This document shows positions 4,233-59,055 of a stretch of 64,000 bases of DNA, in pieces (position 1 is the first letter of the stretch; each line of letters starts with the position of its first letter). The DNA is from Candidatus Poribacteria bacterium. GTDB lineage: Bacteria; Poribacteria; WGA-4E; WGA-3G. The position numbers and the translations under genes were made by a program. A model generated the notes under the pieces. The model searched no databases and was not told where the DNA came from. It worked only from the letters and a program-made list of their open reading frames with translations. Location: the NCBI GenBank assembly GCA_965205025.1, contig CBDBFU010000011.1, positions 64,001-128,000 of the forward strand. Direction: 5' to 3'.

Positions 4233-4432
4233 GTATAGTTAAATTATATCACATGACAGGGGTAAAATCAAATTTATTGATTGGTTAGGGTGTGTATAAT
4301 TTTTGGCATTAAAGTACTGGCAGGTATCTTCTTCGAATCACGAAAAGTTTGTAGTCATGATCGGGGAATCGGAATCCTTCATGATAATTTACGGATAGTT
4401 TCCCATTAGACTTTTCGTCCCTACAGCACAAA

Positions 4433-8188: not shown

Positions 8189-8351
8189 AATTGACTCCTT
8201 TAGAAATCGAATATTCTTATAATTTTGGTATATGTTGATAGTTTAGACAATAACCGATTTTCTGTCAATGTATTCTCTGATCTGAATAGTTTCTAGCGAA
8301 ATTATTTAGTATTTATTACTTGATGTTGGTTAAATGTGAAAAAAGAAAATG

Positions 8352-8390
8352 TGAAAAAAGTTACACTTTTTGTCACATAGTGTGACATTG
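8352..8390. repeat. conserved 39-bp element, copy 1 (inverted copy at 50085-50123)
   Basis: TGAAAAAAGTTACACTTTTTGTCACATAGTGTGACATTG is 38/39 identical to the reverse complement of 50085-50123 and contains the palindrome TGTCACA-N3-TGTGACA. Confidence 0.9.
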
Positions 8391-8631
8391 TATAATCGCC
8401 CATCCGATCTGTTACAGACTGGATTTAGAGCCATTTTATTATAATTACGAGAATTTCCAAAATTGATGAATTTTGTGTCATTTTCTGGTGTTTTTAACCA
8501 TTAAAGCCATCTGTGTTTTTCTCTATTTCTGATTGTATTTTTATGAAATTGTTGGATTGTCATTTCTCATTTTCCCAAATTACACCTTCTTAATATGATA
8601 CATTTTCTTTTTCTCTTTTTATACATTTATA

Positions 8632-8849
8632 ATTTTTCATAGTTACCATTTTAGATCATGTGATACTGAAGTGCTCTAACACCAGTTCTGTACTGATTTT
8701 AGAGGCTGTCTTCATGGTTTGTTATTTTTCATAGTAACTATGAAAGTTTCTAACTTTCTTACATTGTAAATCATCGATAAACATAGTCTGGCACTTGATT
8801 CATGTCTGTTTTTACATTATTGGGTAATAGAAGCGTAACTATGAAAAAT
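8632..8849. repeat. cluster of CATAGT(T/A)AC inverted repeats
   Basis: ATTTTTCATAGTTAC (8632-8646) is the perfect inverse of GTAACTATGAAAAAT (8835-8849). A central palindrome TTTCATAGT-A-ACTATGAAA lies at 8727-8745. Confidence 0.8.
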
Positions 8850-9274
8850 ATTCATAGTATAACAATTATATTTCATTGAGTTTGTTATAGGCGGTATTTG
8901 CCACCATGTTTGTGATAGCATCATATCCGATTTAATGTGATATATATAATTACATAATAAGATTTATATGTCAAGAGAAAAATTATATATTGTGATAGAT
9001 ACATAAATTTCTTATTAGCTAATGTTAGTTTTTTATTATGGGTATTTCTATAATATTATATCTTTAGTTGTGTTATAGTATGGTATTCTTCAATCTTTTT
9101 ATTTATTTAAGGAAGGATGGAAGGGATATCTGAATCGCGGATTACACGGATGACGCGGGTTTAGCGGAGAAGAAAGGCTATAGTCTGTAAGATTTTCTTT
9201 TTCTACTGAAACTACGAATCAAGAAATCAATGATATGAATGCCGTATTGTTTTATGGAATCAGTTTTTCTTTAT

Positions 9275-9303
9275 TTGACTTTGAGTAGAAAATATGTTAT
9301 TTT
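9275..9303 (+). promoter_or_regulatory. sigma70-type promoter of the small membrane-protein gene
   Basis: TTGACT-17 bp-TATTTT with extended TG; shares AAATATGTTAT with the paralogue promoter at 49483-49511. Confidence 0.6.
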
Positions 9304-9322
9304 TTAATAGAGGCATAAACTG

Positions 9323-9772
9323 ATGAATAATCAGGAACGCGTTGCTGGGGATAAAAACAAACGTTCATCAATATTTACAGTCAAAGACGCTGAAAACACT
9401 ATATTGTGTTTCTGTATCTATGTTATTATCCTTTTCGTTTGTGTAATTATACACCAGTATTTACTCAAAAATTACAAATTTATTAATTCTCTTTATTTTG
9501 TAGTTGAAAATATCTCAAAAATAATAGCTGCATCAACTTTATTGGTTATTTTTGGGGAAGGAATAGACATCATGTTACGACGTTTCAGAGAATATCTCCG
9601 GAGAGAACAGGAAATAAAAGCAAAAGCAAAAGATGAAGTTTACGATGAAGTTTACAAAGAGGTGGCAGCGTGGGATCGCCGTCGAAGGGATGCTGAAGCA
9701 CAGGGTATAGAATTCAATGAACCTCTGCCGATACAACCGCGAGAAAATTCGCAGGATAATTCAAAGAAATAA
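9323..9772 (+). CDS. small 2-helix membrane protein with charged C-terminal tail (paralogue of 48994-49458)
   Basis: Two hydrophobic segments, then GIDIML...WDRRRRDAEAQGIEFNEPLPIQPRENSQDNSKK, which aligns with the paralogue tail; GAGG RBS upstream. Confidence 0.85.
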   Translation: MNNQERVAGDKNKRSSIFTVKDAENTILCFCIYVIILFVCVIIHQYLLKNYKFINSLYFVVENISKIIAASTLLVIFGEGIDIMLRRFREYLRREQEIKAKAKDEVYDEVYKEVAAWDRRRRDAEAQGIEFNEPLPIQPRENSQDNSKK

Positions 9773-9829: not shown

Positions 9830-12800
9830 TCACACACCTAACTCTGGTAATCCGTTAACAATTTCATTTGTCTCCAGACTTACATAAATCACCTTTGCAA
9901 TTAGATCCACAATATAACGCGGTTCATCAACACGATTTGGGTCGTTGACAATTCCGCTGCGTTTGTCTGTCTTGACGCGATACTGGTCTATCACCCACTC
10001 CAATGCAGAACGTGTTCCGAGACGATATTCATACGTTTTCTCTGGAATACCATCAATCGTCAGAAATTCGTTATATTTCAGTTGTGTCTTATCTTTGGAC
10101 AATTTCATCTTTTCTACACGCCAATCTACCGGTACACCAGGGGTTTCAATGTATTGGAGTCCATCATATTTCGGTACGGTTTTATAGTTAACATGGATAT
10201 CAGCTAACTGTTCACCGGCATTTGCGAACCCCCAGAAATCGGGGGCAAATGGTATATGGGGTAAGTCGCGTCGTAGGTTTGCCTGATATTTTTCACGATA
10301 TTCTGGATGGTGTAGGATTCCGTAGTTATAGTAGAAAATATCCCATTTTGTGATCGCATCGTCTTTGTAGTGCTTTCGGAATTCTTCCAATGCCCAATCG
10401 GTTATGTTCTCTTTTCGTCCTGTTCCATCTTCATTATAGGTATAGAATGGAAAACATTGAGAACCACTTTGCGGAAGAAGATCAGTAATTTGAGTAGCCA
10501 TTAATGAAAACATTGGCCAGTTTGCCCCAACTTTCAGCCAAATTAAGCGATTCTCTTCTTCAGTTTCTTCGGTAGGGAAAAAAGAGGGAAACAGATAAAC
10601 ACAATTATTTAGAACACGATCAAAAAAGAAATTGGTTTTTACATAAGGACGATATAGTAAATTCCTTACTTTGGACTCAGTAAATTCAGCAATCCTTCCA
10701 CGCTGCATGTGTTGGCGTAATTCCCTATCCCATTTGATTCTTGTGTCATCATATATAACAAAATCATTTACTTTTACTTCCTGTTTTTCACGTCGTTGCC
10801 ACCTATCCATCTCAGAGTTATAGGTATCAATCATATTCTGGATATTCTTAATCAGAACATTTCGGTGATAATTATTAACCCAAGTGTCACGACCTGTTTT
10901 TACACCACTACTGAAGGACTTGAATATCACATCCTTTGTTATTCCTTTCTGTGCTTTTGCTTCCTTCGTACCCATAGGAATAAATGTATCGAATTCAACA
11001 TGAAGTCCTTCAGTTAGCCATGTGTTTTTCGTGTTTGGTTCTATCTCTTTCCATGCAATATTACCTATATGTTGTTGTTCATTTAGAAATTCAAATTTCT
11101 TCGTTCTATTCCACAAGTCATCTGTTCGATAGTAAAATATATGGGGTGTCTCTGTCTGTCTCTGTTTTGATTTAACAAATAAATTAATACATACTCCAAC
11201 CCGTATGCCGAATACATTTGCATCCGATACCTTCAATCCTTTCCGTGCATTCCCACCTAAATCCAATACATAAATCGAATCAAAATCCTCAGCAAGGTGT
11301 TTTCGCATCCCATCAAATGCCAGACCGTCAACAAATCCATTGTTTGTTACAAAAACAACAATTCCTTCTTCACCAATTCTATCTGCTGCCCATCGGATCG
11401 CTTTTATGTAGGGATCATATAGTGCACTTTTTAACTGTGCATTGGAATCTGCAGCATAGGTATCCTCAATACGTTTATCCATTGTTTCGTATTTTCGATT
11501 CCGATTATTATCACTGTCATTTACCTGCCATGCATTGTAAGGTGGATTTCCAATCACAACAAACATCTCCGCTTTTTTCTGCCGTTCCACACGATCTGTG
11601 TTTTCTTGTGTAAACATCTGAATCTGTCGATCTTCAAGCAGTTCAAACGTATCCGCAAGCGTAATACCTTCAAACGGTAAATAGGTTTGGGTGCGTTGAT
11701 AGTATTCCTGTTCTATGTTCAAACTTGCAATATAGTATGGTAGGAGCATCACCTCATTACAGTGTAGTTCATGCTGATATTTCTCTTCTAATGCTGTACC
11801 TTTAATATCCTGCATCAGACGTACTATGAAATTACCTGTACCAACAAACGGATCAATGATATGTACACCACTATCTGATAGAGAACGACCGAATTCTGTT
11901 TCCAATATATGCCCCACACTGTTTACCATAAAATCCACAATCGGTTGGGGTGTGTAGACGATCCCGTGTGTGTCCGCAACATCTTCTGAAAATCCTTGAA
12001 AGAACTTCTCATAGAATGTGTTGAGGAAATGCTGTTTTTGTGAAAAATCTCTACAGAGAGTTGCTGCTTGTTCTATAGCAACATAAAACCGATCTAACGG
12101 TTCAAGGAATGCGTCTCGACTCACTGCCTGACGCATCAAGGCATCGGTAACATTTTCAATCTCACGTGCGATGATGTTCCGTCGGGTAAAATCTGACCTA
12201 TCAAAGACTGTCCGAAAGATACGTTCTGTTAGGATGTGCTGAATCAACATTTCTTCGACTGCTGCACGTGATAGATCGGGGTTAATTGCTGAACGACATA
12301 TCTCGTAAAAGTCCATGAACGCTTTTTTAAAGGATGAGTCGGAGTCATATCGTTGTTCTATGAGTTGCTTTAAGTTATTGGCAAGATCAGGAACGTGTTC
12401 CCTGAAATCTATAACAGCGTTCTGCCAATCTGCAAGTGCGGGTGCAGTGTATCCGAAAAGGTATTGAAGGGTTGCGATAAGGTTGGCAGGTTCGGTTATT
12501 TCCAGATCAAGTGCGACCTGTCCGTTTTGTATGAGGAGTCCGCGTTCTGGTGTTTGAAAAAGGATATTTTCGAGTGGGTAGCCAACATCACGTTTCTGTT
12601 GTACGGCTTGGTATAGATCGTCATCTGTGTCTTTTGCTTCCCAATATGCGAATGGAATACCGATTTCATTTAATACTGCCCCGTCAATGACAATCCGATC
12701 ATCTGATGCGGTTTGCATGGCGTATTGTGGGATAAGGGTTGCATCTACCTGTTTAGCACAAATTGTGAGGAGTGTTTCGAAGGGTGAACTGACAGCACCT

Positions 12801-12928
12801 TCGTGTGTGACATCGTGCTGTTGGTATTGTTGTAGGGTAGCGTAGTAGTCTTTAATTGCCTTGTGTGACGGTTTTATGTTTAGCTGCCGCATATCGGTAT
12901 GATAACAGGTATTAGGGATAGATGGCAA
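9830..12928 (-). CDS. single-chain restriction-modification enzyme (N6-adenine MTase plus type ISP-like specificity domain, no helicase)
   Basis: N-terminal 'IDGAV...YWEAK' nuclease-like motif, YTPQPIV, DPFVGTGNF (SAM binding), GNPPY, and C-terminal 'YRPY', 'YGILHHPEYREKY', 'SALEWVIDQY'. Start more likely at 12892. Confidence 0.88.
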   Translation of the reverse strand: MPSIPNTCYHTDMRQLNIKPSHKAIKDYYATLQQYQQHDVTHEGAVSSPFETLLTICAKQVDATLIPQYAMQTASDDRIVIDGAVLNEIGIPFAYWEAKDTDDDLYQAVQQKRDVGYPLENILFQTPERGLLIQNGQVALDLEITEPANLIATLQYLFGYTAPALADWQNAVIDFREHVPDLANNLKQLIEQRYDSDSSFKKAFMDFYEICRSAINPDLSRAAVEEMLIQHILTERIFRTVFDRSDFTRRNIIAREIENVTDALMRQAVSRDAFLEPLDRFYVAIEQAATLCRDFSQKQHFLNTFYEKFFQGFSEDVADTHGIVYTPQPIVDFMVNSVGHILETEFGRSLSDSGVHIIDPFVGTGNFIVRLMQDIKGTALEEKYQHELHCNEVMLLPYYIASLNIEQEYYQRTQTYLPFEGITLADTFELLEDRQIQMFTQENTDRVERQKKAEMFVVIGNPPYNAWQVNDSDNNRNRKYETMDKRIEDTYAADSNAQLKSALYDPYIKAIRWAADRIGEEGIVVFVTNNGFVDGLAFDGMRKHLAEDFDSIYVLDLGGNARKGLKVSDANVFGIRVGVCINLFVKSKQRQTETPHIFYYRTDDLWNRTKKFEFLNEQQHIGNIAWKEIEPNTKNTWLTEGLHVEFDTFIPMGTKEAKAQKGITKDVIFKSFSSGVKTGRDTWVNNYHRNVLIKNIQNMIDTYNSEMDRWQRREKQEVKVNDFVIYDDTRIKWDRELRQHMQRGRIAEFTESKVRNLLYRPYVKTNFFFDRVLNNCVYLFPSFFPTEETEEENRLIWLKVGANWPMFSLMATQITDLLPQSGSQCFPFYTYNEDGTGRKENITDWALEEFRKHYKDDAITKWDIFYYNYGILHHPEYREKYQANLRRDLPHIPFAPDFWGFANAGEQLADIHVNYKTVPKYDGLQYIETPGVPVDWRVEKMKLSKDKTQLKYNEFLTIDGIPEKTYEYRLGTRSALEWVIDQYRVKTDKRSGIVNDPNRVDEPRYIVDLIAKVIYVSLETNEIVNGLPELGV

Positions 12929-20537: not shown

Positions 20538-20659
20538 TACACACTTAAGTTAATATCGTATTAACATATGTGATTCACGGAGAATTGGTATCAATAAATT
20601 ATAAACACTTATAGAATAAGGGTTCGTAGAATTGCTCCGTGAAGGTTTCCGTGAAAGTG
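20538..20659. repeat. ~122-bp dispersed element, copy 1 (copy 2 at 50366-50488)
   Basis: Both copies share TACACACTTAAGTTA, ATGTGATTCACGGAGAA, AAATTATAAAC-CTTATAGAATAAGG and AATTGCTCCGTGAAGGTTTCCGTGAAAGTG. Confidence 0.9.
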
Positions 20660-20718
20660 CATTCATCTCAGAACAATAATTATTAACACTTTTTCCATTC
20701 ATATTATCTATCTTACAT

Positions 20719-27278: not shown

Positions 27279-27333
27279 TGACAATTCACAAAAACTTTAC
27301 ACATCCTCACATATTAGAAAAGGAACTTTTCTT

Positions 27334-44317: not shown

Positions 44318-44628
44318 GGTAGGCTTGGTTTACGGGGAATGTCTTATGAAGATTAATTTTTAAATTCGGTAATTCTAATTCCCCAAGACCCAGTAGGCGG
44401 GAATGCTAAATAGCATTCATACCGTTGATTCCTTGATTCCTTGATTCCTTGATTCGCGGGTGAATCTTTGTAGAAAACGCTGAAACCCACTAAATAAGCC
44501 CCAGCGGGGCGAAAGGTGTGTAGAAAACGTCATAACCCTAAACAACAAGCCCCAGCGGGGCGAAAGGTGTGTAGAAAACGTGTTTATCCACTATCTTGAG
44601 TTCCATAGAGACGGAATATCTATAAAAT
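44318..44628. repeat. cluster of REP/MITE-like elements and a short tandem repeat
   Basis: GAATGCTA-AA-TAGCATTC hairpin shared with ~39354-39371; TTGATTCC repeated almost four times (44425-44455); two identical 34-bp units at 44496-44529 and 44547-44580. Confidence 0.8.
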
Positions 44629-44878
44629 ACCTATTGAAGTAAATTGACTTTTTCGAATGCTAATAATGTAAACTAATCAATAGAATTAGTATAATCTATC
44701 TGATAATTATCCAAACTATAGTCATTTAGTAATGAGTAATCATCATATTAAATGGTATAATGTATAATCAATATATGAGATGAGTATAACTCCTTGAAGT
44801 CGTGTTGTAGAAGATGAATCTTGGAATAGTTATTGAGATTCAAACACAAAAAGCCTGAATTCATGCTAAAAACTTTAA

Positions 44879-45008
44879 ATACCCAATTTCAGCAAATCCA
44901 TTGCATGCATTTATCATGTTTGTTAAAATAAACCAATATGCTATTGCTGTATCGTCCGAATTTGTAATAATTCCATTTAGGATGTTTAATAATATTCTAT
45001 GATGATAC
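44879..45008 (+). promoter_or_regulatory. promoter/leader, copy 1 (homologous to 50649-50783)
   Basis: TTGCAT-17 bp-TAAAAT with extended TG, followed by a short hairpin; collinear with copy 2. Confidence 0.7.
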
Positions 45009-45099
45009 CGATATAATATGATATGATTTAGATTTCATCCAACGGAACTCTCGCAAACACTATATTAGTCCCAAAACATTGGGATAGGTAGTTTATGAC

Positions 45100-47574: not shown

Positions 47575-47820
47575 TCAAGTGTCGTATTAAACATTATAAT
47601 GAATTAGTTTTAAATTTTGTTAACCTCTGTTATACTGACTTATTATCTTTCGAACAAATATTTTCTGGGGTTTTTATTTTGCGAGGGTTACCAGGCAACT
47701 TTTTTATCTGCGTTGGACATTTTTTGAGTTGCAAGTCTACAATTGAAAAGAAGACGGGCGGAGGTGAGTCGTAAAAGCATGCATTTATGTGTGTTGCGGA
47801 GGTATATAAGGAGAATTGAT

Positions 47821-48360
47821 ATGCCAGAGAAAACGGCACCTAATCTTGGTGTTGAAGACATAGATCATATAATAAGAAAAATTGTTGATAATCCTACTTT
47901 TTCTAAGGAGAAGATAAACGAACTAGCGGGTATTGGTTCTCGGCAAAGTAGAGAGAATCTATTATTAACCCCTTGGATATTGGATAATACGCGTCTTGTC
48001 TTGGGTGAGGATATTGATTTGCGGCAAAATGAAGAACTTCGCAGTCTGCGGGATGATAAAATATATCCTGATTTGGTAGGTAAAGACCTCCGAGGGTATC
48101 CTATTATTGTTGAAGTGAAATTTAAGTTCGATTATCCAGAAGATAAAAAACAGAATCGCACAGATCCTGAATACATGGCTATTGGTCAGATTCTTCAATA
48201 TTCTCGTGCGTATAGGAGAGAATATCCATCAACTGAAGACCTGCGTTTGTTAATTGTTAGTATAGATTATTCGCCAGATGTGGAGGATGTTTGTAAATTC
48301 TTACGATCAAAAAGCATTGACATTCGCTATATTTCTATCAAGAAGATATTATGCAAGTGA
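47821..48360 (+). CDS. PD-(D/E)xK nuclease (NucS/EndoMS C-terminal-like)
   Basis: YPDLVGKD...IIVEVK...AIGQILQY. ATG at 47821 with AGGAG upstream is preferred over the TTG at 47743. Confidence 0.75.
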   Translation: MPEKTAPNLGVEDIDHIIRKIVDNPTFSKEKINELAGIGSRQSRENLLLTPWILDNTRLVLGEDIDLRQNEELRSLRDDKIYPDLVGKDLRGYPIIVEVKFKFDYPEDKKQNRTDPEYMAIGQILQYSRAYRREYPSTEDLRLLIVSIDYSPDVEDVCKFLRSKSIDIRYISIKKILCK

Positions 48361-48405: not shown

Positions 48406-48924
48406 TTAGCGGAAAGGATTGCTTTTGTTGACTCTTTTTAGTTTGCCTAATGCTTGTTCCAGCGGAGATCGGAAAGGATTTTGTTGTTCAAGTCTGTTTC
48501 TTCCTGTGAATTTTAGAAGTTTCTGCAATGGTGTCTCTAAATCGGGGATGTTGACAAAGACAAGGTCAACGTTTACCGGTAAGCGTTCAGTTATTTTGGG
48601 TGGGTATATGATCCCTATGAACTTCTCAATACCCCTTAGTGTATCCGTGTATTCGTCCGTGGATACATTGAGCCAATATCCCCATGGTATAGTAGCCCAC
48701 GTCACATAGAGGCTATAACGTTTATACACTTGAATTTTCGGATCATTAATATGTTCCCTCAACCTATTTTTTATTTCCCCGCTTCCAACTTTTAGTATAG
48801 TTTGCGGATGAGTATCTGCCCAAATTATATAATTCCCCGTTACACTTAATCCCCAAGGGAATTCAAGTCGAGGATTATCTATTAGTGAATTATTGAAAAA
48901 GTCCGTCTGTCAATGTAGTTTCAT
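48406..48924 (-). pseudogene. GIY-YIG-like small nuclease with an in-frame TGA at codon 5
   Basis: The frame is open from the TGA at 48910-48912 to the stop: MKLH*QTDFF...TGNYIIWA...TILKVGSGEIKNRLREH...LYVTWA...GIEKF. Confidence 0.65.
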
Positions 48925-48993
48925 GTACATGATACAACCCTTCATAAAAGTTGTGGGTCGCCAGTTTGAACTGACGACCTCGTTGTGATGCTG

Positions 48994-49458
48994 TTATTCT
49001 TTTGAATTCTCCTGTGATTTTTCTTCTGGATGTATCGGCGGGGGTTCAGTGAACTCCTCGCCTCGATCCTCCGCCTCTTTCCGCCGACGTTCCCATTCTG
49101 CAAACTTTCGATAAGCTCTTGCTTCTCCTTCAGCGATTCCTTCTGCTTTGGCAGTTTCTATGGCAGCTGCTATCCGCTTCTCACGTCTTGCTTCAATAAA
49201 GTCTGATAGTAACATGATTAGGTCTATGCCTCCGATTATCATTGCAACGAGTGCCGCACCCACCGGGATAAATGCGGAAATGTCTTTTGTGACATTTTGA
49301 ACAGAAACGTGTTCCTTCCAGCCTTGTGTTATCTCATAATCCAGTGCGATATACCCGTATATGAGAGCGAAAAGAGAAATTAGGAATAAGGCAACGCCTG
49401 TTTTTCCTGTTCTCCAGAAGTCTCGGACGGCGTGCCAGAAGGTTCTAATCTGTTTCAA
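48994..49458 (-). CDS. small 2-helix membrane protein with charged C-terminal tail (paralogue of 9323-9772)
   Basis: Two hydrophobic segments, then GIDLIML...AEGIAEGEAR...WERRRKEAEDRGEEFTEPPPIHPEEKSQENSKE; GGAG RBS before the TTG. Confidence 0.85.
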   Translation of the reverse strand: MKQIRTFWHAVRDFWRTGKTGVALFLISLFALIYGYIALDYEITQGWKEHVSVQNVTKDISAFIPVGAALVAMIIGGIDLIMLLSDFIEARREKRIAAAIETAKAEGIAEGEARAYRKFAEWERRRKEAEDRGEEFTEPPPIHPEEKSQENSKE

Positions 49459-49482: not shown

Positions 49483-49511
49483 AATATAACATATTTCAGA
49501 TAAGTAATCAA
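49483..49511 (-). promoter_or_regulatory. sigma70-type promoter of the membrane-protein paralogue
   Basis: TTGATT-17 bp-TATATT with extended TG on the minus strand. Confidence 0.6.
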
Positions 49512-49755
49512 GGCAAATCTACCTAAAGGGTGTGTAAAGTTTTTGTCACATTACTAAGTACCAAAAAAACTCAATTCCATATACCTTCATTTAGAATTTC
49601 ACATTTACAGTTTATTCATCACTACACTAATGCCGATTAATATCCCTTTCTAATTTACCCCAAAATATATTTATTGAAAAATAAATTGAAGAAAACAAAA
49701 ATATCTAACAACTAATATACAGATATCACAATAACATAAAACAAATTAAAAATAT

Positions 49756-49784
49756 TTGTCAAAATGAAAATAAAATTGTATAAT
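49756..49784 (+). promoter_or_regulatory. near-consensus promoter firing into the conserved non-coding element
   Basis: TTGTCA-17 bp-TATAAT. Confidence 0.55.
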
Positions 49785-50084
49785 ACTATATCGTTCAATA
49801 ATTATAAACTAAATACAACAAATTACTTGGAAGTTACGAATTTAGAACTTTTTGGGACATACCGAATTATAGGAAAATATTTGATGAAATGTCATAACAC
49901 TCATAATCAGAAAGAAATAACAAATACTTCTATGAATACGTCTCTTTTTGCGGAAAATAGAAGTCCTAAACAGAATGGAAACAAAAGCACAAAATCACAC
50001 TTTTTAGATTTTTTTATAATTTCATTTAAAATTGCTGTAAAGTCAGTATACAAAAGGGTTCATAGCCCATATTTGCACCAATTT

Positions 50085-50123
50085 CAATGTCACACCATGT
50101 GACAAAAAGTGTAACTTTTTTCA
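50085..50123. repeat. conserved 39-bp element, copy 2
   Basis: Reverse complement matches 8352-8390 at 38/39 positions. Confidence 0.9.
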
Positions 50124-50365
50124 TTTTTCCGAGGCATAGACTAATGCACCAACAACTCGATCTACTGTCTGAGTATTTAGGATTAAATGACTGTTTTTAG
50201 ACCTTATTTTTTGTCTGTATATTTGGAATTAACAATTCTAATTCAGGGAAAACTGAGTATCTAATGATAAGTCTATTTTTTGAAGTTTTGTATATCAAAA
50301 ATACCGTACTCCAGCGGAGTGCTATGTGCCGATACACTTCGTATGAAAAACATATTAGTACTTAA

Positions 50366-50488: not shown

Positions 50489-50648
50489 TAAAAAATTCAA
50501 GACGACAAATATTAACAGTTTTTTACAATACACAGTATCCATAGATCTAACATAACTGGGGTTGAGATGAATACTAAAGATGATATTGGAGATAAATATT
50601 GGTATCCAAGTATGATAGCAGCGTAATGTATAGTGATAATAACTTAAC

Positions 50649-50783
50649 ATACCCAATTTCAGGAAATCCATTGCAAGTATTTATCCTGTTTGCTAAAATA
50701 AACCGATATGCTATCGGTGTATCGTCCTAATCTGTAATTATCCCTTTTTGGTGTTGGATATTCGTCATTGATTATTGCGATAC
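50649..50783 (+). promoter_or_regulatory. promoter/leader of the cytochrome c gene (copy 2)
   Basis: TTGCAA-17 bp-TAAAAT with extended TG; hairpin CCGATA-TGC-TATCGG. Confidence 0.7.
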
Positions 50784-57100: not shown

Positions 57101-57580
57101 TTATAGTAATTCCGATAGTTTTGATCCACACCTTGCTATTTTGATATCTGATGAATCACCTCTAAGTACCACTCTGGAGTAAGATTTTCTCAATTGTCTA
57201 ATCTCAGAATTGGAAATACCATTGTGGAGAAGTAAAGGAATGCATATAACATCTACATTCATGGGGATATAGCCTTTAGCGAAATCAACACCACCTTTTA
57301 ATTGTTTAACTGCTTTATTAGCTTCTGCATTTCCTCCCTTGAGTTCCATTGGTACTACTACAAACTTATTTGACTGGTCAAAGTAAAAGAGTACACACTC
57401 ACATTGATTTTCACTATCACGTCCATCTGGATATACAGAATCAAGATCAACAATTACTCGATCATCCTCTGAAACATTAGTTAGGTTAACTCTACATTTA
57501 CCTTTTTTAAATATGTTCCCTTTAAATAAGTGCTCTTTACCGATTTTATTCCGTATACTCTGTAGTATCTTACTCTTCAC
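57101..57580 (-). CDS. small putative PD-(D/E)xK-like nuclease, partner of the ATPase
   Basis: QCECVLFY...PMELKGG....AVKQL; overlaps the upstream ATPase stop by 4 nt. Confidence 0.6.
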   Translation of the reverse strand: MKSKILQSIRNKIGKEHLFKGNIFKKGKCRVNLTNVSEDDRVIVDLDSVYPDGRDSENQCECVLFYFDQSNKFVVVPMELKGGNAEANKAVKQLKGGVDFAKGYIPMNVDVICIPLLLHNGISNSEIRQLRKSYSRVVLRGDSSDIKIARCGSKLSELL

Positions 57581-59055
57581 TCGTGCTTATCTCCTGTCTT
57601 TTCCATGAGTAAGGTTCGTAGATCTACAGATTGATTGTATAACCCCTCCGCAACTTCCCCATAATCCATCGGTTCAAAACCGTTAATTGGATCAAAAATT
57701 ATTTCCTCAACTGGTTTGTCAGAATGAAACCACCATGTACCAACCTCATCTGCTGTAAGCCAAGATTCTGACTCGGTTTGATTCTCTCCTCTTTTCTTCA
57801 TTTCACCAATGCGAACTAAGTTACTAATCTGTTCAAGGAACCACTCACTATGTGTTGTAATAATCACACGGACTCCTGCTCTTACTAATTTAGCTAATGT
57901 AATTGCTACTTGTGTCTGAGCACCAGGATGTAAATGGGATTCTGGTTCTTCAATTATGAGGGTATCTCCCCGTTTAACAATTCCACGTAAAAACAAGACC
58001 AATGGAGTAAGTTCTGATACCATAGATGAGGATTGATTCATTTGAAAATTCTTATTTGTTTTATTTGGGTGATAAAGGAATTCTGGGTATGCTGACGGAG
58101 CTGTTCGGTTAACTTGTATCTTCCCTCCCAGTACCTCTTCCTCTAATTTATCTGCGATTTGTCGTATTTTATTGTCACTTCTACTTCGTTTATTTTGCTC
58201 TTTATAATGTATGATAAACTTAAGAAAATCTACAATCATACCTGAAAATGTAGATATTTCAGGAAAAAGTTCTATTCCTATACGAGATGAACGTTCTACA
58301 AGTGAACTGGCAATTACACCATGACTCTGCATAATTCCACTTCGTGCAGCAGGTAGGTAGTATGATTTTCTTCTCTGTTTAAAGAAAGAAGAATGTAGAT
58401 ATTCATTCAGCTCCTCAAGACCAAGTGTCTTTTGTAACTTCTTCTTACCACTAGACAATATTACTAAATCCGGATTTATGATTCCTTCTACTACGGGTTT
58501 CTTAGTACCAGAACAATTCAGACTAAAATTCCAAAGATTCTTTTTTCCATCATCAACTTTTATAGAAACAGATAGTCGACTTGACTTATTGCCTGTATTA
58601 CGTCTCAAGTTAGAGATTGACTCGTGGTCAAAACATCTCTTAAGCTCTTCTATCAAAAAAGATGAATCCTTAAAATCTGAGATAAGATCGGTATATATTC
58701 TCTGTGGTAGATCAGAAAAAGTGAAGGGTTGATCAATATTATTCAGTTTTTCAAGAGTATTACGTATATCTTCCTTTTCTGATTCAGTTTCTGCTTCGTT
58801 AATCCTATAGAAGTAGTTTTGAATGAGAAAATAGTGTAATTGATAATGAGTAGATATAGACCAAGGAAATTGTGGAAAACCATCAAATGCACGATGCATG
58901 GCATAAATGAGTGCTGAAAGATAGGTCTTCCCTGAATTACTTTCTCCAACAAACACAGTTAATGGACGGAGATCAATTTCAGCACTTTTTATAGGTCCAA
59001 AGTTTTGAGCTGAAACTTGAATTTTCTGATTTCTTGAACTTCTAATATTTCTCAT
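57577..59055 (-). CDS. ABC-type AAA ATPase (AAA_15/AAA_21-like)
   Basis: NFGPI, GESNSGKT (Walker A), LPAARSG, SSSM signature, IIEEPESHLHP (Walker B/D-loop), ITTHS. Confidence 0.88.
   Translation of the reverse strand: MRNIRSSRNQKIQVSAQNFGPIKSAEIDLRPLTVFVGESNSGKTYLSALIYAMHRAFDGFPQFPWSISTHYQLHYFLIQNYFYRINEAETESEKEDIRNTLEKLNNIDQPFTFSDLPQRIYTDLISDFKDSSFLIEELKRCFDHESISNLRRNTGNKSSRLSVSIKVDDGKKNLWNFSLNCSGTKKPVVEGIINPDLVILSSGKKKLQKTLGLEELNEYLHSSFFKQRRKSYYLPAARSGIMQSHGVIASSLVERSSRIGIELFPEISTFSGMIVDFLKFIIHYKEQNKRSRSDNKIRQIADKLEEEVLGGKIQVNRTAPSAYPEFLYHPNKTNKNFQMNQSSSMVSELTPLVLFLRGIVKRGDTLIIEEPESHLHPGAQTQVAITLAKLVRAGVRVIITTHSEWFLEQISNLVRIGEMKKRGENQTESESWLTADEVGTWWFHSDKPVEEIIFDPINGFEPMDYGEVAEGLYNQSVDLRTLLMEKTGDKHE

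Follow-up and report, generated by a model that had tools for sequence, protein, structure and literature searches.

A dispersed intergenic repeat with a conserved 31-bp core, a putative protein-binding site, in a low-G+C clade of Candidatus Poribacteria

We analysed a stretch of 64,000 nucleotides (nt), hereafter the window, from a genome of Candidatus Poribacteria, an uncultivated phylum (GenBank assembly GCA_965205025.1, contig CBDBFU010000011.1, positions 64,001 to 128,000 of the forward strand); coordinates are counted from its first base. Its G+C content is 38.5%, and its gene content is typical of Candidatus Poribacteria (PhyH, ThuA, Gfo/Idh/MocA, MR_MLE, LamG and dockerin families). 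Two genes in the window encode related small membrane proteins, and each lies downstream of a copy of the same 39-bp non-coding element. Alignment of the copies described below identifies this 39-mer as the best-kept stretch of a module of about 150 bp, here called block A; a second, weaker conserved block, block B, lies nearer the gene. The features at the two sites are as follows, with E-values and bit scores from the profile and covariance model (CM R1) searches described below.

8332–8360 (+): 15-bp tandem duplication, AAATGTGAAAAAAGA in 1.9 copies, reaching into the 5' edge of the core of copy 1
8345–8495 (+): block A copy 1, non-coding module of about 150 bp; nhmmer envelope, E = 5.9e-36
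8354–8390 (+): core of copy 1, GTTACAC-T5 followed by the palindrome TGTCACA-TAG-TGTGACA (8371–8387); CM R1 72.1 bits
8985–9100 (+): block B copy 1, TTCTTCAAT..GGGATAT..ATCG; 64% identical to copy 2 over 118 nt (blastn), with a further match in locus L042
9323–9772 (+): membrane-protein gene copy 1, 149 amino acids (aa), ATG start, divergent subfamily
48994–49458 (−): membrane-protein gene copy 2, 154 aa, TTG start, typical family form
49679–49791 (−): block B copy 2, counterpart of block B copy 1 (64% over 118 nt)
49970–50130 (−): block A copy 2, long form, with a 10-bp insertion common to locus L028; nhmmer E = 1.8e-33
50085–50121 (−): core of copy 2, palindrome at 50088–50104; CM R1 71.7 bits

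A pattern of the 37-nt core matched the window exactly twice, at 8354–8390 (+) and 50085–50121 (−), and gave no match in 100 shuffles, and comparison of the window with itself by BLAST returned 39 nt at 97.4% identity. Chance falls far short of explaining how alike the two cores are. An initial annotation, made from the sequence of the window, had described 38 identical positions out of 39 with the mismatch in the centre of the palindrome. This description holds: the pattern is present at the two sites only, and they differ solely in the middle base of TGTCACA-N3-TGTGACA. Both cores are co-oriented with the gene, and the distance from core end to start codon is 933 bp for copy 1 and 627 bp for copy 2, in agreement with the earlier estimates of about 930 and 630 bp. 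Collinear similarity beyond the core, which had been put at about 200 bp, is real but extends over about 150 bp (68% over 142 nt), with block B as a separate and weaker stretch.

Block A was searched for with an nhmmer profile and with CM R1 in 920,666 bases, comprising the window and 49 related loci (L numbers), every named source of which is Candidatus Poribacteria. These loci were chosen for holding genes of the membrane-protein family, so that the sample is skewed toward such genes. Six clear copies were found, five of them full, in three genomes: that of the window, that shared by L013 and L028, and that of L042. The four copies outside the window are the following.

L028 8953–9114 (+): block A, long form
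L013 9117–9267 (+): block A (L013a), palindrome broken
L042 5603–5453 (−): block A, full copy
L013 20453–20383 (−): block A (L013b), cut by the end of the locus

The six copies occupy five to six distinct contexts in the three genomes, which is the distribution of a dispersed intergenic repeat. Both window copies and those of L028 and L013a are co-oriented with a family gene 485–830 bp downstream of block A. The L042 copy lies about 1.1 kb past the 3' end of a family gene, convergent with it; this locus is syntenic with copy 1 through a restriction-modification (R-M) gene and has block A in the same orientation, but its family gene is inverted and of another subfamily. The cut copy L013b precedes a moeB-like gene and is unlinked to a family gene, and a borderline copy in L025 (E = 0.044) adjoins none. 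At all five full copies the left-hand gene is transcribed away from block A. The element-bearing sources, the window included, are low in G+C (35–39%), and both spacers of the window copies, at 26–29% G+C, are without credible open reading frames (ORFs). The portions of the literature available on intergenic repeats of Poribacteria, on their non-coding RNA and on 'Pelagiporibacteria' contained nothing relevant.

Within block A, conservation is concentrated in the core. All ten pairs of the five copies are identical at 26–30 of the 31 core positions, whereas the remaining columns, about 110, are only 50–67% identical between copies; this contrast indicates that the core is under real constraint. 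Its invariant part is GTTACACTTTTT, followed by ..CACAT.GTGTG.CATT. The layout of the 31 bp is asymmetric, with GTTACAC, five T residues and then a palindrome of 7-3-7 form (motif GTTACAC-T5-NNCACATNGTGTGNCATT). In L028 and L042 the palindrome reads TGACACA/TGTGTCA instead of TGTCACA/TGTGACA, a double change that keeps the symmetry; in L013a the symmetry is broken. A promoter-like pair, TTTAca-N17-TAtAAa, stands at one alignment position in all five full copies, with scores of 7–10 of 12. It follows the palindrome by 36 or 46 bp, exactly 10 extra bases (one helical turn) being present between the two in copy 2 and L028. The symmetric site is thus phased to the −35/−10 pair, as an operator would be to its promoter, although the support is thin, a single indel event and a single double substitution.

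Copy 1 appears to be a chimera. In its 5' flank and core it is like copy 2 and L028, and its 3' part is closest to that of L042 (70/108 positions, against 55/110 for copy 2). Because the core resembles one pair of copies and the 3' part resembles that of the syntenic locus, the sequences suggest a short conversion tract in copy 1, which would help explain the 38/39 identity within the window.

The initial annotation had proposed that element and protein form a functional unit. The distribution speaks against this proposal, since most family members lack the element, the very outcome that had been named as its refutation. Block A is absent from 44 of the 49 family loci, as judged within up to 10 kb, including L008, L019 and L021, in which the gene is 83–84% identical in DNA to copy 2. 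Where block A does occur, L013b and the borderline L025 copy are unlinked to a family gene, L042 is convergent, and the element-linked genes fall into at least three separate lineages of a quick tree (L028 was left out since its profile match was split in two). Element-linkage needs at least three state changes on this tree, no fewer than shuffled labels. Co-occurrence within about 1 kb beyond chance had also been named as a check. Five of the six clear copies do lie within 1.3 kb of a family gene, but when copies were placed at random in the ORF-free space of the four source sequences, both window copies came within this distance in 13% of trials, and at least five of the six did so in 4.5% (P = 0.045–0.13). 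Chance co-location is fairly high because family genes adjoin the largest spacers, and the position of the cores beside the genes is only weakly beyond chance. We conclude that block A is not a general or dedicated partner of the membrane-protein family, because 44 of the 49 loci are without it and the family genes have their own promoter and, in many cases, a terminator.

The membrane-protein family is itself large. The two window proteins share 49 of 135 residues (36%, E = 1e-19), most strongly in the C-terminal tail, as had been noted for these proteins of about 150 aa. A profile of the two retrieved 365 proteins at E ≤ 0.01, every named one from Candidatus Poribacteria, and an exhaustive profile search gave 630 representative clusters at E ≤ 0.001; the best 150 of the 630 clusters are all small (48–244 aa) and include no fused form. 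The plan is kept in distant members as well, with two membrane helices, a run of (A/K)EGx repeats and the tail W..W..RR..AE..G.PF.EPPP. An AlphaFold model predicts a helical hairpin, then a helix of about 65 residues (pLDDT 70) and a proline-rich tail. Neither protein is matched by a Pfam, NCBIfam or PADLOC model (in PADLOC, zero families at E ≤ 0.1). A search for related solved structures found none, the best match being LptE at E = 0.09, and the ESM Atlas gave only clusters without names. The copy 2 protein is 64–95% identical to sampled members, and copy 1 groups with L001–L003 on a long branch of the quick tree; judged by these relationships, the two window proteins are from anciently split subfamilies. 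The earlier contrast between well-conserved non-coding DNA and a poorly conserved protein therefore compared unlike things, although the constraint on the core stands.

Tandem arrays of family genes are frequent (at 16.8–20.2 kb in L011, and in L009, L038 and L048), and several family copies are frameshifted. There is no general conserved neighbour of the family, the commonest neighbour cluster occurring in 9 of 50 sources. Protein lengths vary mostly in steps of 4 aa (146, 150, 154 ... 190) through the number of AEG[I/K/R] units, which correspond to 12-bp DNA repeats (e.g. window 49143–49173); slippage at these repeats could be the source of the length variation. Locus L006 (9992–10347) holds a copy-1-type gene of a close low-G+C relative, 5' truncated and frameshifted, with no block A upstream. 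A WD40-repeat gene lies divergently upstream in both L006 and L013, the family genes of which belong to different subfamilies.

The expression signals of the family genes in the window are the following.

9275–9303 (+): proximal promoter of gene copy 1, TTGACT-17-TATTTT
49483–49511 (−): proximal promoter of gene copy 2, TTGATT-17-TATATT with TG
48946–48979 (−): intrinsic-terminator-like hairpin after gene copy 2, GGTCGTCAG-TTCAAA-CTGGCGACC, then a T run

Both of the matching promoters reported in the initial annotation were thus located. Most of 35 family upstream regions contain TTGACA, about 17 nt, a TG-TATTAT-like sequence, about 20 nt, GGAGG and a TTG start. Since this architecture is seen in most of these regions, the resemblance within the window pair is a family trait and not special to the pair. 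Hairpins similar to that after gene copy 2, GC-rich and with a T run, follow the stop codon in L013, L006, L009, L003, L010, L030 and L036. Upstream spacers are otherwise short in the family (median 208 bp, 41 genes). Judged by these signals, the family gene is a self-contained expression unit. The near-consensus promoter reported at 49756–49784 (+), TTGTCA-17-TATAAT, does match at 11 of 12 positions, but is weak evidence, as the region yields 16 promoter-like sites against 9.3 ± 2.9 in shuffles.

From their sequence, the long spacers are repeat mosaics with insertion sequence (IS) debris. An apparently intact ISKra4-type IS is present in L033 (2096–3529, −), with 20-bp inverted ends GGGTGTGTAAAGTTTTTGGC and a 9-bp target duplication GTTTTAGCA on both sides. 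The C-terminus of its 343-aa ORF matches a fragment in L047, on which the NCBIfam model NF033572 scores E = 3e-24. L047 16110–17269 is a 1160-bp deletion derivative of the L033 IS that keeps only the last 100 or so codons, and it holds internally AAATGTTACACTTTT and the palindrome TGTTACAC-NN-GTGTAACA. A module of about 400 bp from L047 recurs upstream of the L018 family gene, with its GTTACAC/palindrome part 180–290 bp from the gene. Two sites in the window resemble the ends of this IS.

49528–49547 (−): ISKra4-type terminal inverted repeat, GACAAAAACTTTACACACCC; 19/20 match to the L033 IS terminal repeat; its end lies 16 nt upstream of the −35 of gene copy 2
50635–50654 (+): degenerate second terminal repeat, GATAATAACTTAACATACCC, 15/20; tentative

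These sites bound a 1127-bp segment that holds block A copy 2, which in at least this one case would place block A in IS-derived DNA. The site at 49528–49547 was at first taken for a partial inverted copy of the core and was then identified as an IS terminal repeat. No transposase remnant was found in the segment, and tblastn with the L033 transposase finds nothing in the window.

The same terminal repeat (..CAAAAACTTTACACACCC) recurs elsewhere, at these sites.

49528–49547 (−), 4288–4305 (−) and 27289–27306 (+) in the window; L003 9860–9877; L011 19303–19320; L040 10518–10535; L022 4542–4559: terminal repeats of the CAAAAACTTTACACACCC type

In four family genes, from different subfamilies, 16–18 nt separate its end from the −35 downstream; these are the genes of L003, L011, L040 and window copy 2 (L022 has the same flank as L003 and is outside the counted set). 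A spacing of 16 nt is also found before the −35 of the window polyprenyl synthetase gene. Allowing one mismatch at most, 4 of 42 family genes have the repeat within their 220 nt of upstream sequence; among 5000 windows of 220 nt drawn at random from the same sequences, a background that includes coding DNA, 12 contain it. The IS end near family promoters may reflect a target preference, shared ancestry of end and gene, or a promoter role of the end.

Further repeats add to the mosaic. The copy 2 spacer holds repeats of about 155 bp, of which 50366–50523 matches 20538–20694 at 84% and 50634–50788 matches 44864–45019 at 81%. Each member of both families lies upstream of, and co-oriented with, a plus-strand gene, and neither family was found in the 49 loci; the 50366–50523/20538–20694 repeat contains a long inverted repeat, TTCACGGAG...CTCCGTGAA. 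In the copy 1 spacer, 8600–8870 carries about five copies, in both orientations, of a unit of roughly 14–24 nt, TTTTTCATAGT[T/A]AC / GTAACTATGAAA, including a perfect palindrome at about 8729–8743; this tract was not seen in copy 2. Window 44346–44570 is a short dispersed repeat common to many Poribacteria genomes (75–94% over 33–85 nt in L004, L005, L032, L034, L035, L040, L042 and L044). GC-rich REP-like palindromes, CACCAGCGGTGCG, are present in L006 and L042, beside a transposase fragment (L042 3500–3673) that, from its peptide, may be RayT-like.

The genes adjoining the two membrane-protein genes had been described as nucleases. Copy 1 does adjoin a Type ISP/IIG R-M gene at 9830–12928 (−). 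For copy 2 the description was not borne out: the supposed GIY-YIG-like neighbour (48406–48762, 118 aa) has no Pfam, NCBIfam or PADLOC match, and the supposed PD-(D/E)xK neighbour (47743–48360, 205 aa) has only a non-significant match to McrBC (E = 0.13). The same R-M family lies beside a family gene in 5 of 50 sources (window, L036, L041, L042 and L047); the window and L042 versions are about 1030 aa long, with coupler, methylase and specificity domains, and those of L036 and L047 about 1600 aa. Elsewhere in the window, 57101–59055 (−) is a candidate two-gene defence system, in which a 492-aa AAA_15/AAA_21 ATPase matches PD-T4-4_A (E = 2e-39), PDC-M47A and AriA, and a 159-aa partner weakly matches PDC-M47B and PD-T4-4_B.

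Several readings of block A were set aside. A coding role was considered for a reverse-frame peptide (..C.KKCN..) found in all five copies, but it is broken by stops and by the 10-bp indel and has no start codon, and the altered palindrome would exchange V and D; in no frame is an ORF kept by the copies, each frame being broken in some copy by stops and the indel. A solitary CRISPR-like repeat is very unlikely: copy 2 and L028 do have a core ending in ATTGAAAT, but the window has no CRISPR-spaced array, no cas genes and no match to CRISPR-DR, and the short-period repeats that were flagged in 4 of the 49 loci are all unlike the core. By-eye comparison with consensus sequences of attC, dif, sigma-54 and ECF promoters gave no fit. 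A phage or plasmid origin was rejected, as blastn of 8330–8500 found no match in 50,697 phage or 72,556 plasmid records.

The reading that we favour, tentatively and at somewhat less than an even chance, is that the 39-mer is the selectively maintained core of block A, and that block A is a dispersed, IS-associated repeat, putatively a protein-binding and promoter element, scattered through the long, AT-rich, IS-littered intergenic spacers of one low-G+C clade of Candidatus Poribacteria. The core would act as DNA, putatively bound by a protein that recognises its sequence, be it a regulator or a factor derived from a transposase, and this protein would control the promoter inside block A. A protein-binding site was among the possibilities raised in the initial annotation, and it is the one favoured here. 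Block A would then be a portable operator-plus-promoter, comparable to Correia or BOX repeats. At four of the six loci it points at a family gene 485–830 bp downstream, to which it could add a distal regulated promoter, the gene already having a strong promoter of its own. Block A and the family genes would co-occur because the latter are multi-copy units in the same repeat- and IS-rich spacers.

A number of observations weigh against this reading. As regards the promoter, the −10 of the block A pair is poor in copy 1 (TACGAG), a promoter-like pair is found on the reverse strand as well in four of five copies, and AT-rich DNA yields many chance matches of this kind. As regards the link to IS, the 9 bp flanking the two terminal repeats around copy 2 differ, so that the segment has no target-site duplication; the other four full copies lack terminal repeats, the best matches having 7–11 mismatches of 20; blastn of the six units against the L033 IS matched only the copy 2 terminal repeat, with no homology to the IS interior or transposase; and the L018/L047 module, which is weakly similar to block A (CM E = 0.056; nhmmer E = 2.5 and 5), serves as a lead only. 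That the core is conserved in copies otherwise so old favours a function for the host at each site over a purely selfish repeat. Finally, a dedicated regulator would equally account for the proximity (up to 1.3 kb) of five of the six clear copies to family genes, which belong to three gene lineages or more.

Such a dedicated cis-regulatory site, at which a host transcription factor would bind the core and control the family genes, whether through a distal promoter or through a loop reaching the proximal promoter, seems to us unlikely, though it has much in its favour: four of the five copies near a family gene are co-oriented with it, the association recurs in three genomes and at least three gene lineages, and the constrained core, the symmetric compensatory change and the indel phased by 10 bp all fit a transcription-factor site. 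The weakly similar GTTACAC/palindrome module of L018 likewise lies upstream of a family gene. What tells against it is the absence of block A from 44 of 49 family loci, even beside close relatives of gene copy 2, in a sample fetched for family genes, together with the modest simulated probabilities, the unlinked elements of L013b, L025 and L047 and the convergent one of L042. The gene is moreover 485–830 bp away across sequence that is not conserved, and no partner half-site lies near the proximal promoter, the exception in copy 2 being the IS terminal repeat. Rather improbable, in our judgement, is a reading of block A as the gene of a small non-coding RNA, or as the 5' portion of a longer such gene, with the core as a structural or processing hairpin and a target in the neighbouring family mRNA or elsewhere. 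The conserved unit of about 150 bp in ORF-free DNA with promoter-like sites would suit such a gene, as would the palindrome with its compensatory change on both sides; the long-form copies give a closed fold with z-scores of −3.2 (copy 2) and −3.1 (L028), and all six copies, including the cut one of L013, end in an A-run/loop/U-run hairpin followed by U-rich sequence. However, no covarying RNA fold was found for block A: RNAalifold supports, on the forward strand, the 7-bp palindrome alone and, for the reverse strand, eight further pairs, one with a compensatory change. Single-sequence fold z-scores are alike on both strands (average about −2), as DNA inverted repeats would give, the closing helix is missing in three of five copies, and an L013 copy breaks the palindrome. 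Rfam 15 gave no match at the gathering score across the window, the spacers yielding only chance-level matches to eukaryotic snoRNA and miRNA families (E 1–5); no terminator is predicted in either spacer on the relevant strand, and the sole complementarity between block and gene is a 12-nt inverted match in copy 1, with none in copy 2.

It is distinctly improbable that block A, as a portable operator-plus-promoter or small RNA gene, has been repeatedly coupled to the large uncharacterised two-helix family, with the coupling carried or seeded by ISKra4-type elements; were this true, block A and gene together would represent a novel form of regulatory rewiring, assisted by IS, in a multi-copy membrane-protein family. 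We regard as very improbable a role of the core in site-specific recombination or inversion that exchanges or flips family-gene cassettes. An asymmetric core of about 31 bp with an internal palindrome would be compatible with it, as would the locus shared by window copy 1 and L042, where the same R-M gene and block A orientation accompany an inverted family gene of a different subfamily. In copy 2, a 17-nt inverted match to the core (15/17) flanks a 545-bp segment with the near-consensus promoter, and an inverton was considered there; the second arm is, however, the ISKra4 terminal repeat, and flanking inverted matches are absent from the other copies. Similar inverted repeats are common in AT-rich spacers (13 pairs in 1451 bp), no recombinase gene lies near the element at any of the loci, and arms of 7 bp set 3 nt apart are at odds with the core sites of tyrosine recombinases. 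The toxin-antitoxin or defence module preferred by the initial annotation, a membrane effector with a linked non-coding RNA, is hardly credible and is largely refuted by the distribution. Three observations would accord with it: the protein is a small membrane protein, the R-M gene family adjoins family genes in 5 of 50 sources, and the window holds, at another place, the candidate defence pair with its ATPase. Neither protein has a PADLOC match, though, and at 149–154 aa, with a long cytoplasmic helix and a conserved tail, they are unlike type I toxins, which are typically small (under 60 aa) and hydrophobic. The gene brings a strong promoter of its own and occurs in multiple copies, frequently as tandem arrays, and the element is missing from most family loci and, where present, is 0.5–1 kb away without consistent complementarity.

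For genome scanning, these results carry a caution: a near-identical short core beside paralogues looked like a two-part system, an appearance that dissolves after sampling across genomes and correction for intergenic space. For the Poribacteria they provide a 31-bp DNA motif under strong constraint, for which a binding protein should exist, and a large membrane-protein family without annotation, in which expression signals are unusually conserved and AEGx repeats vary; they also give evidence that the long spacers of the low-G+C lineage are shaped by ISKra4-type elements and by repeats of about 150 bp. There is no bearing on health or on a long-standing open question.

Among known systems, type I toxin-antitoxin loci likewise have a membrane protein gene with conserved non-coding DNA nearby, but the family protein is two to three times larger than typical type I toxins, and block A is 0.5–1 kb off, is not antisense and is absent from most family members. 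Likeness to non-autonomous ISKra4 derivatives lies in the position of copy 2 between terminal repeats 1127 bp apart, in the intact IS of a related genome (L033) and in the L047 derivative with its module; unlike such derivatives, block A has no homology to the IS interior or transposase, its other full copies have no ends, and the L047 likeness is weak. A palindromic operator upstream of a sigma-70 promoter, in class I-type geometry, resembles block A in the symmetry kept through a double change and in the phased spacing, fixed at 36 or 46 bp, although block A has no adjacent regulator gene and varies least in the asymmetric GTTACACTTTTT next to the palindrome. The Correia repeats of Neisseria and the BOX, RUP and ERIC repeats are non-coding, dispersed intergenic sequences of about 100–160 bp, with inverted repeats and promoter-like or protein-binding sites that can alter the expression of neighbouring genes. 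Block A differs from them in the low number seen (six copies in about 130 kb from three genomes), in ends without clear terminal inverted repeats or target duplications and in the age of its copies, which are 50–67% identical outside the 31-bp core, and it has no sequence similarity to them. What it shares with these repeats is its size, its non-coding and dispersed nature, its inverted repeats and promoter-like sites, and a modular make-up, with blocks A and B here and other repeats of about 155 bp in the same spacers.

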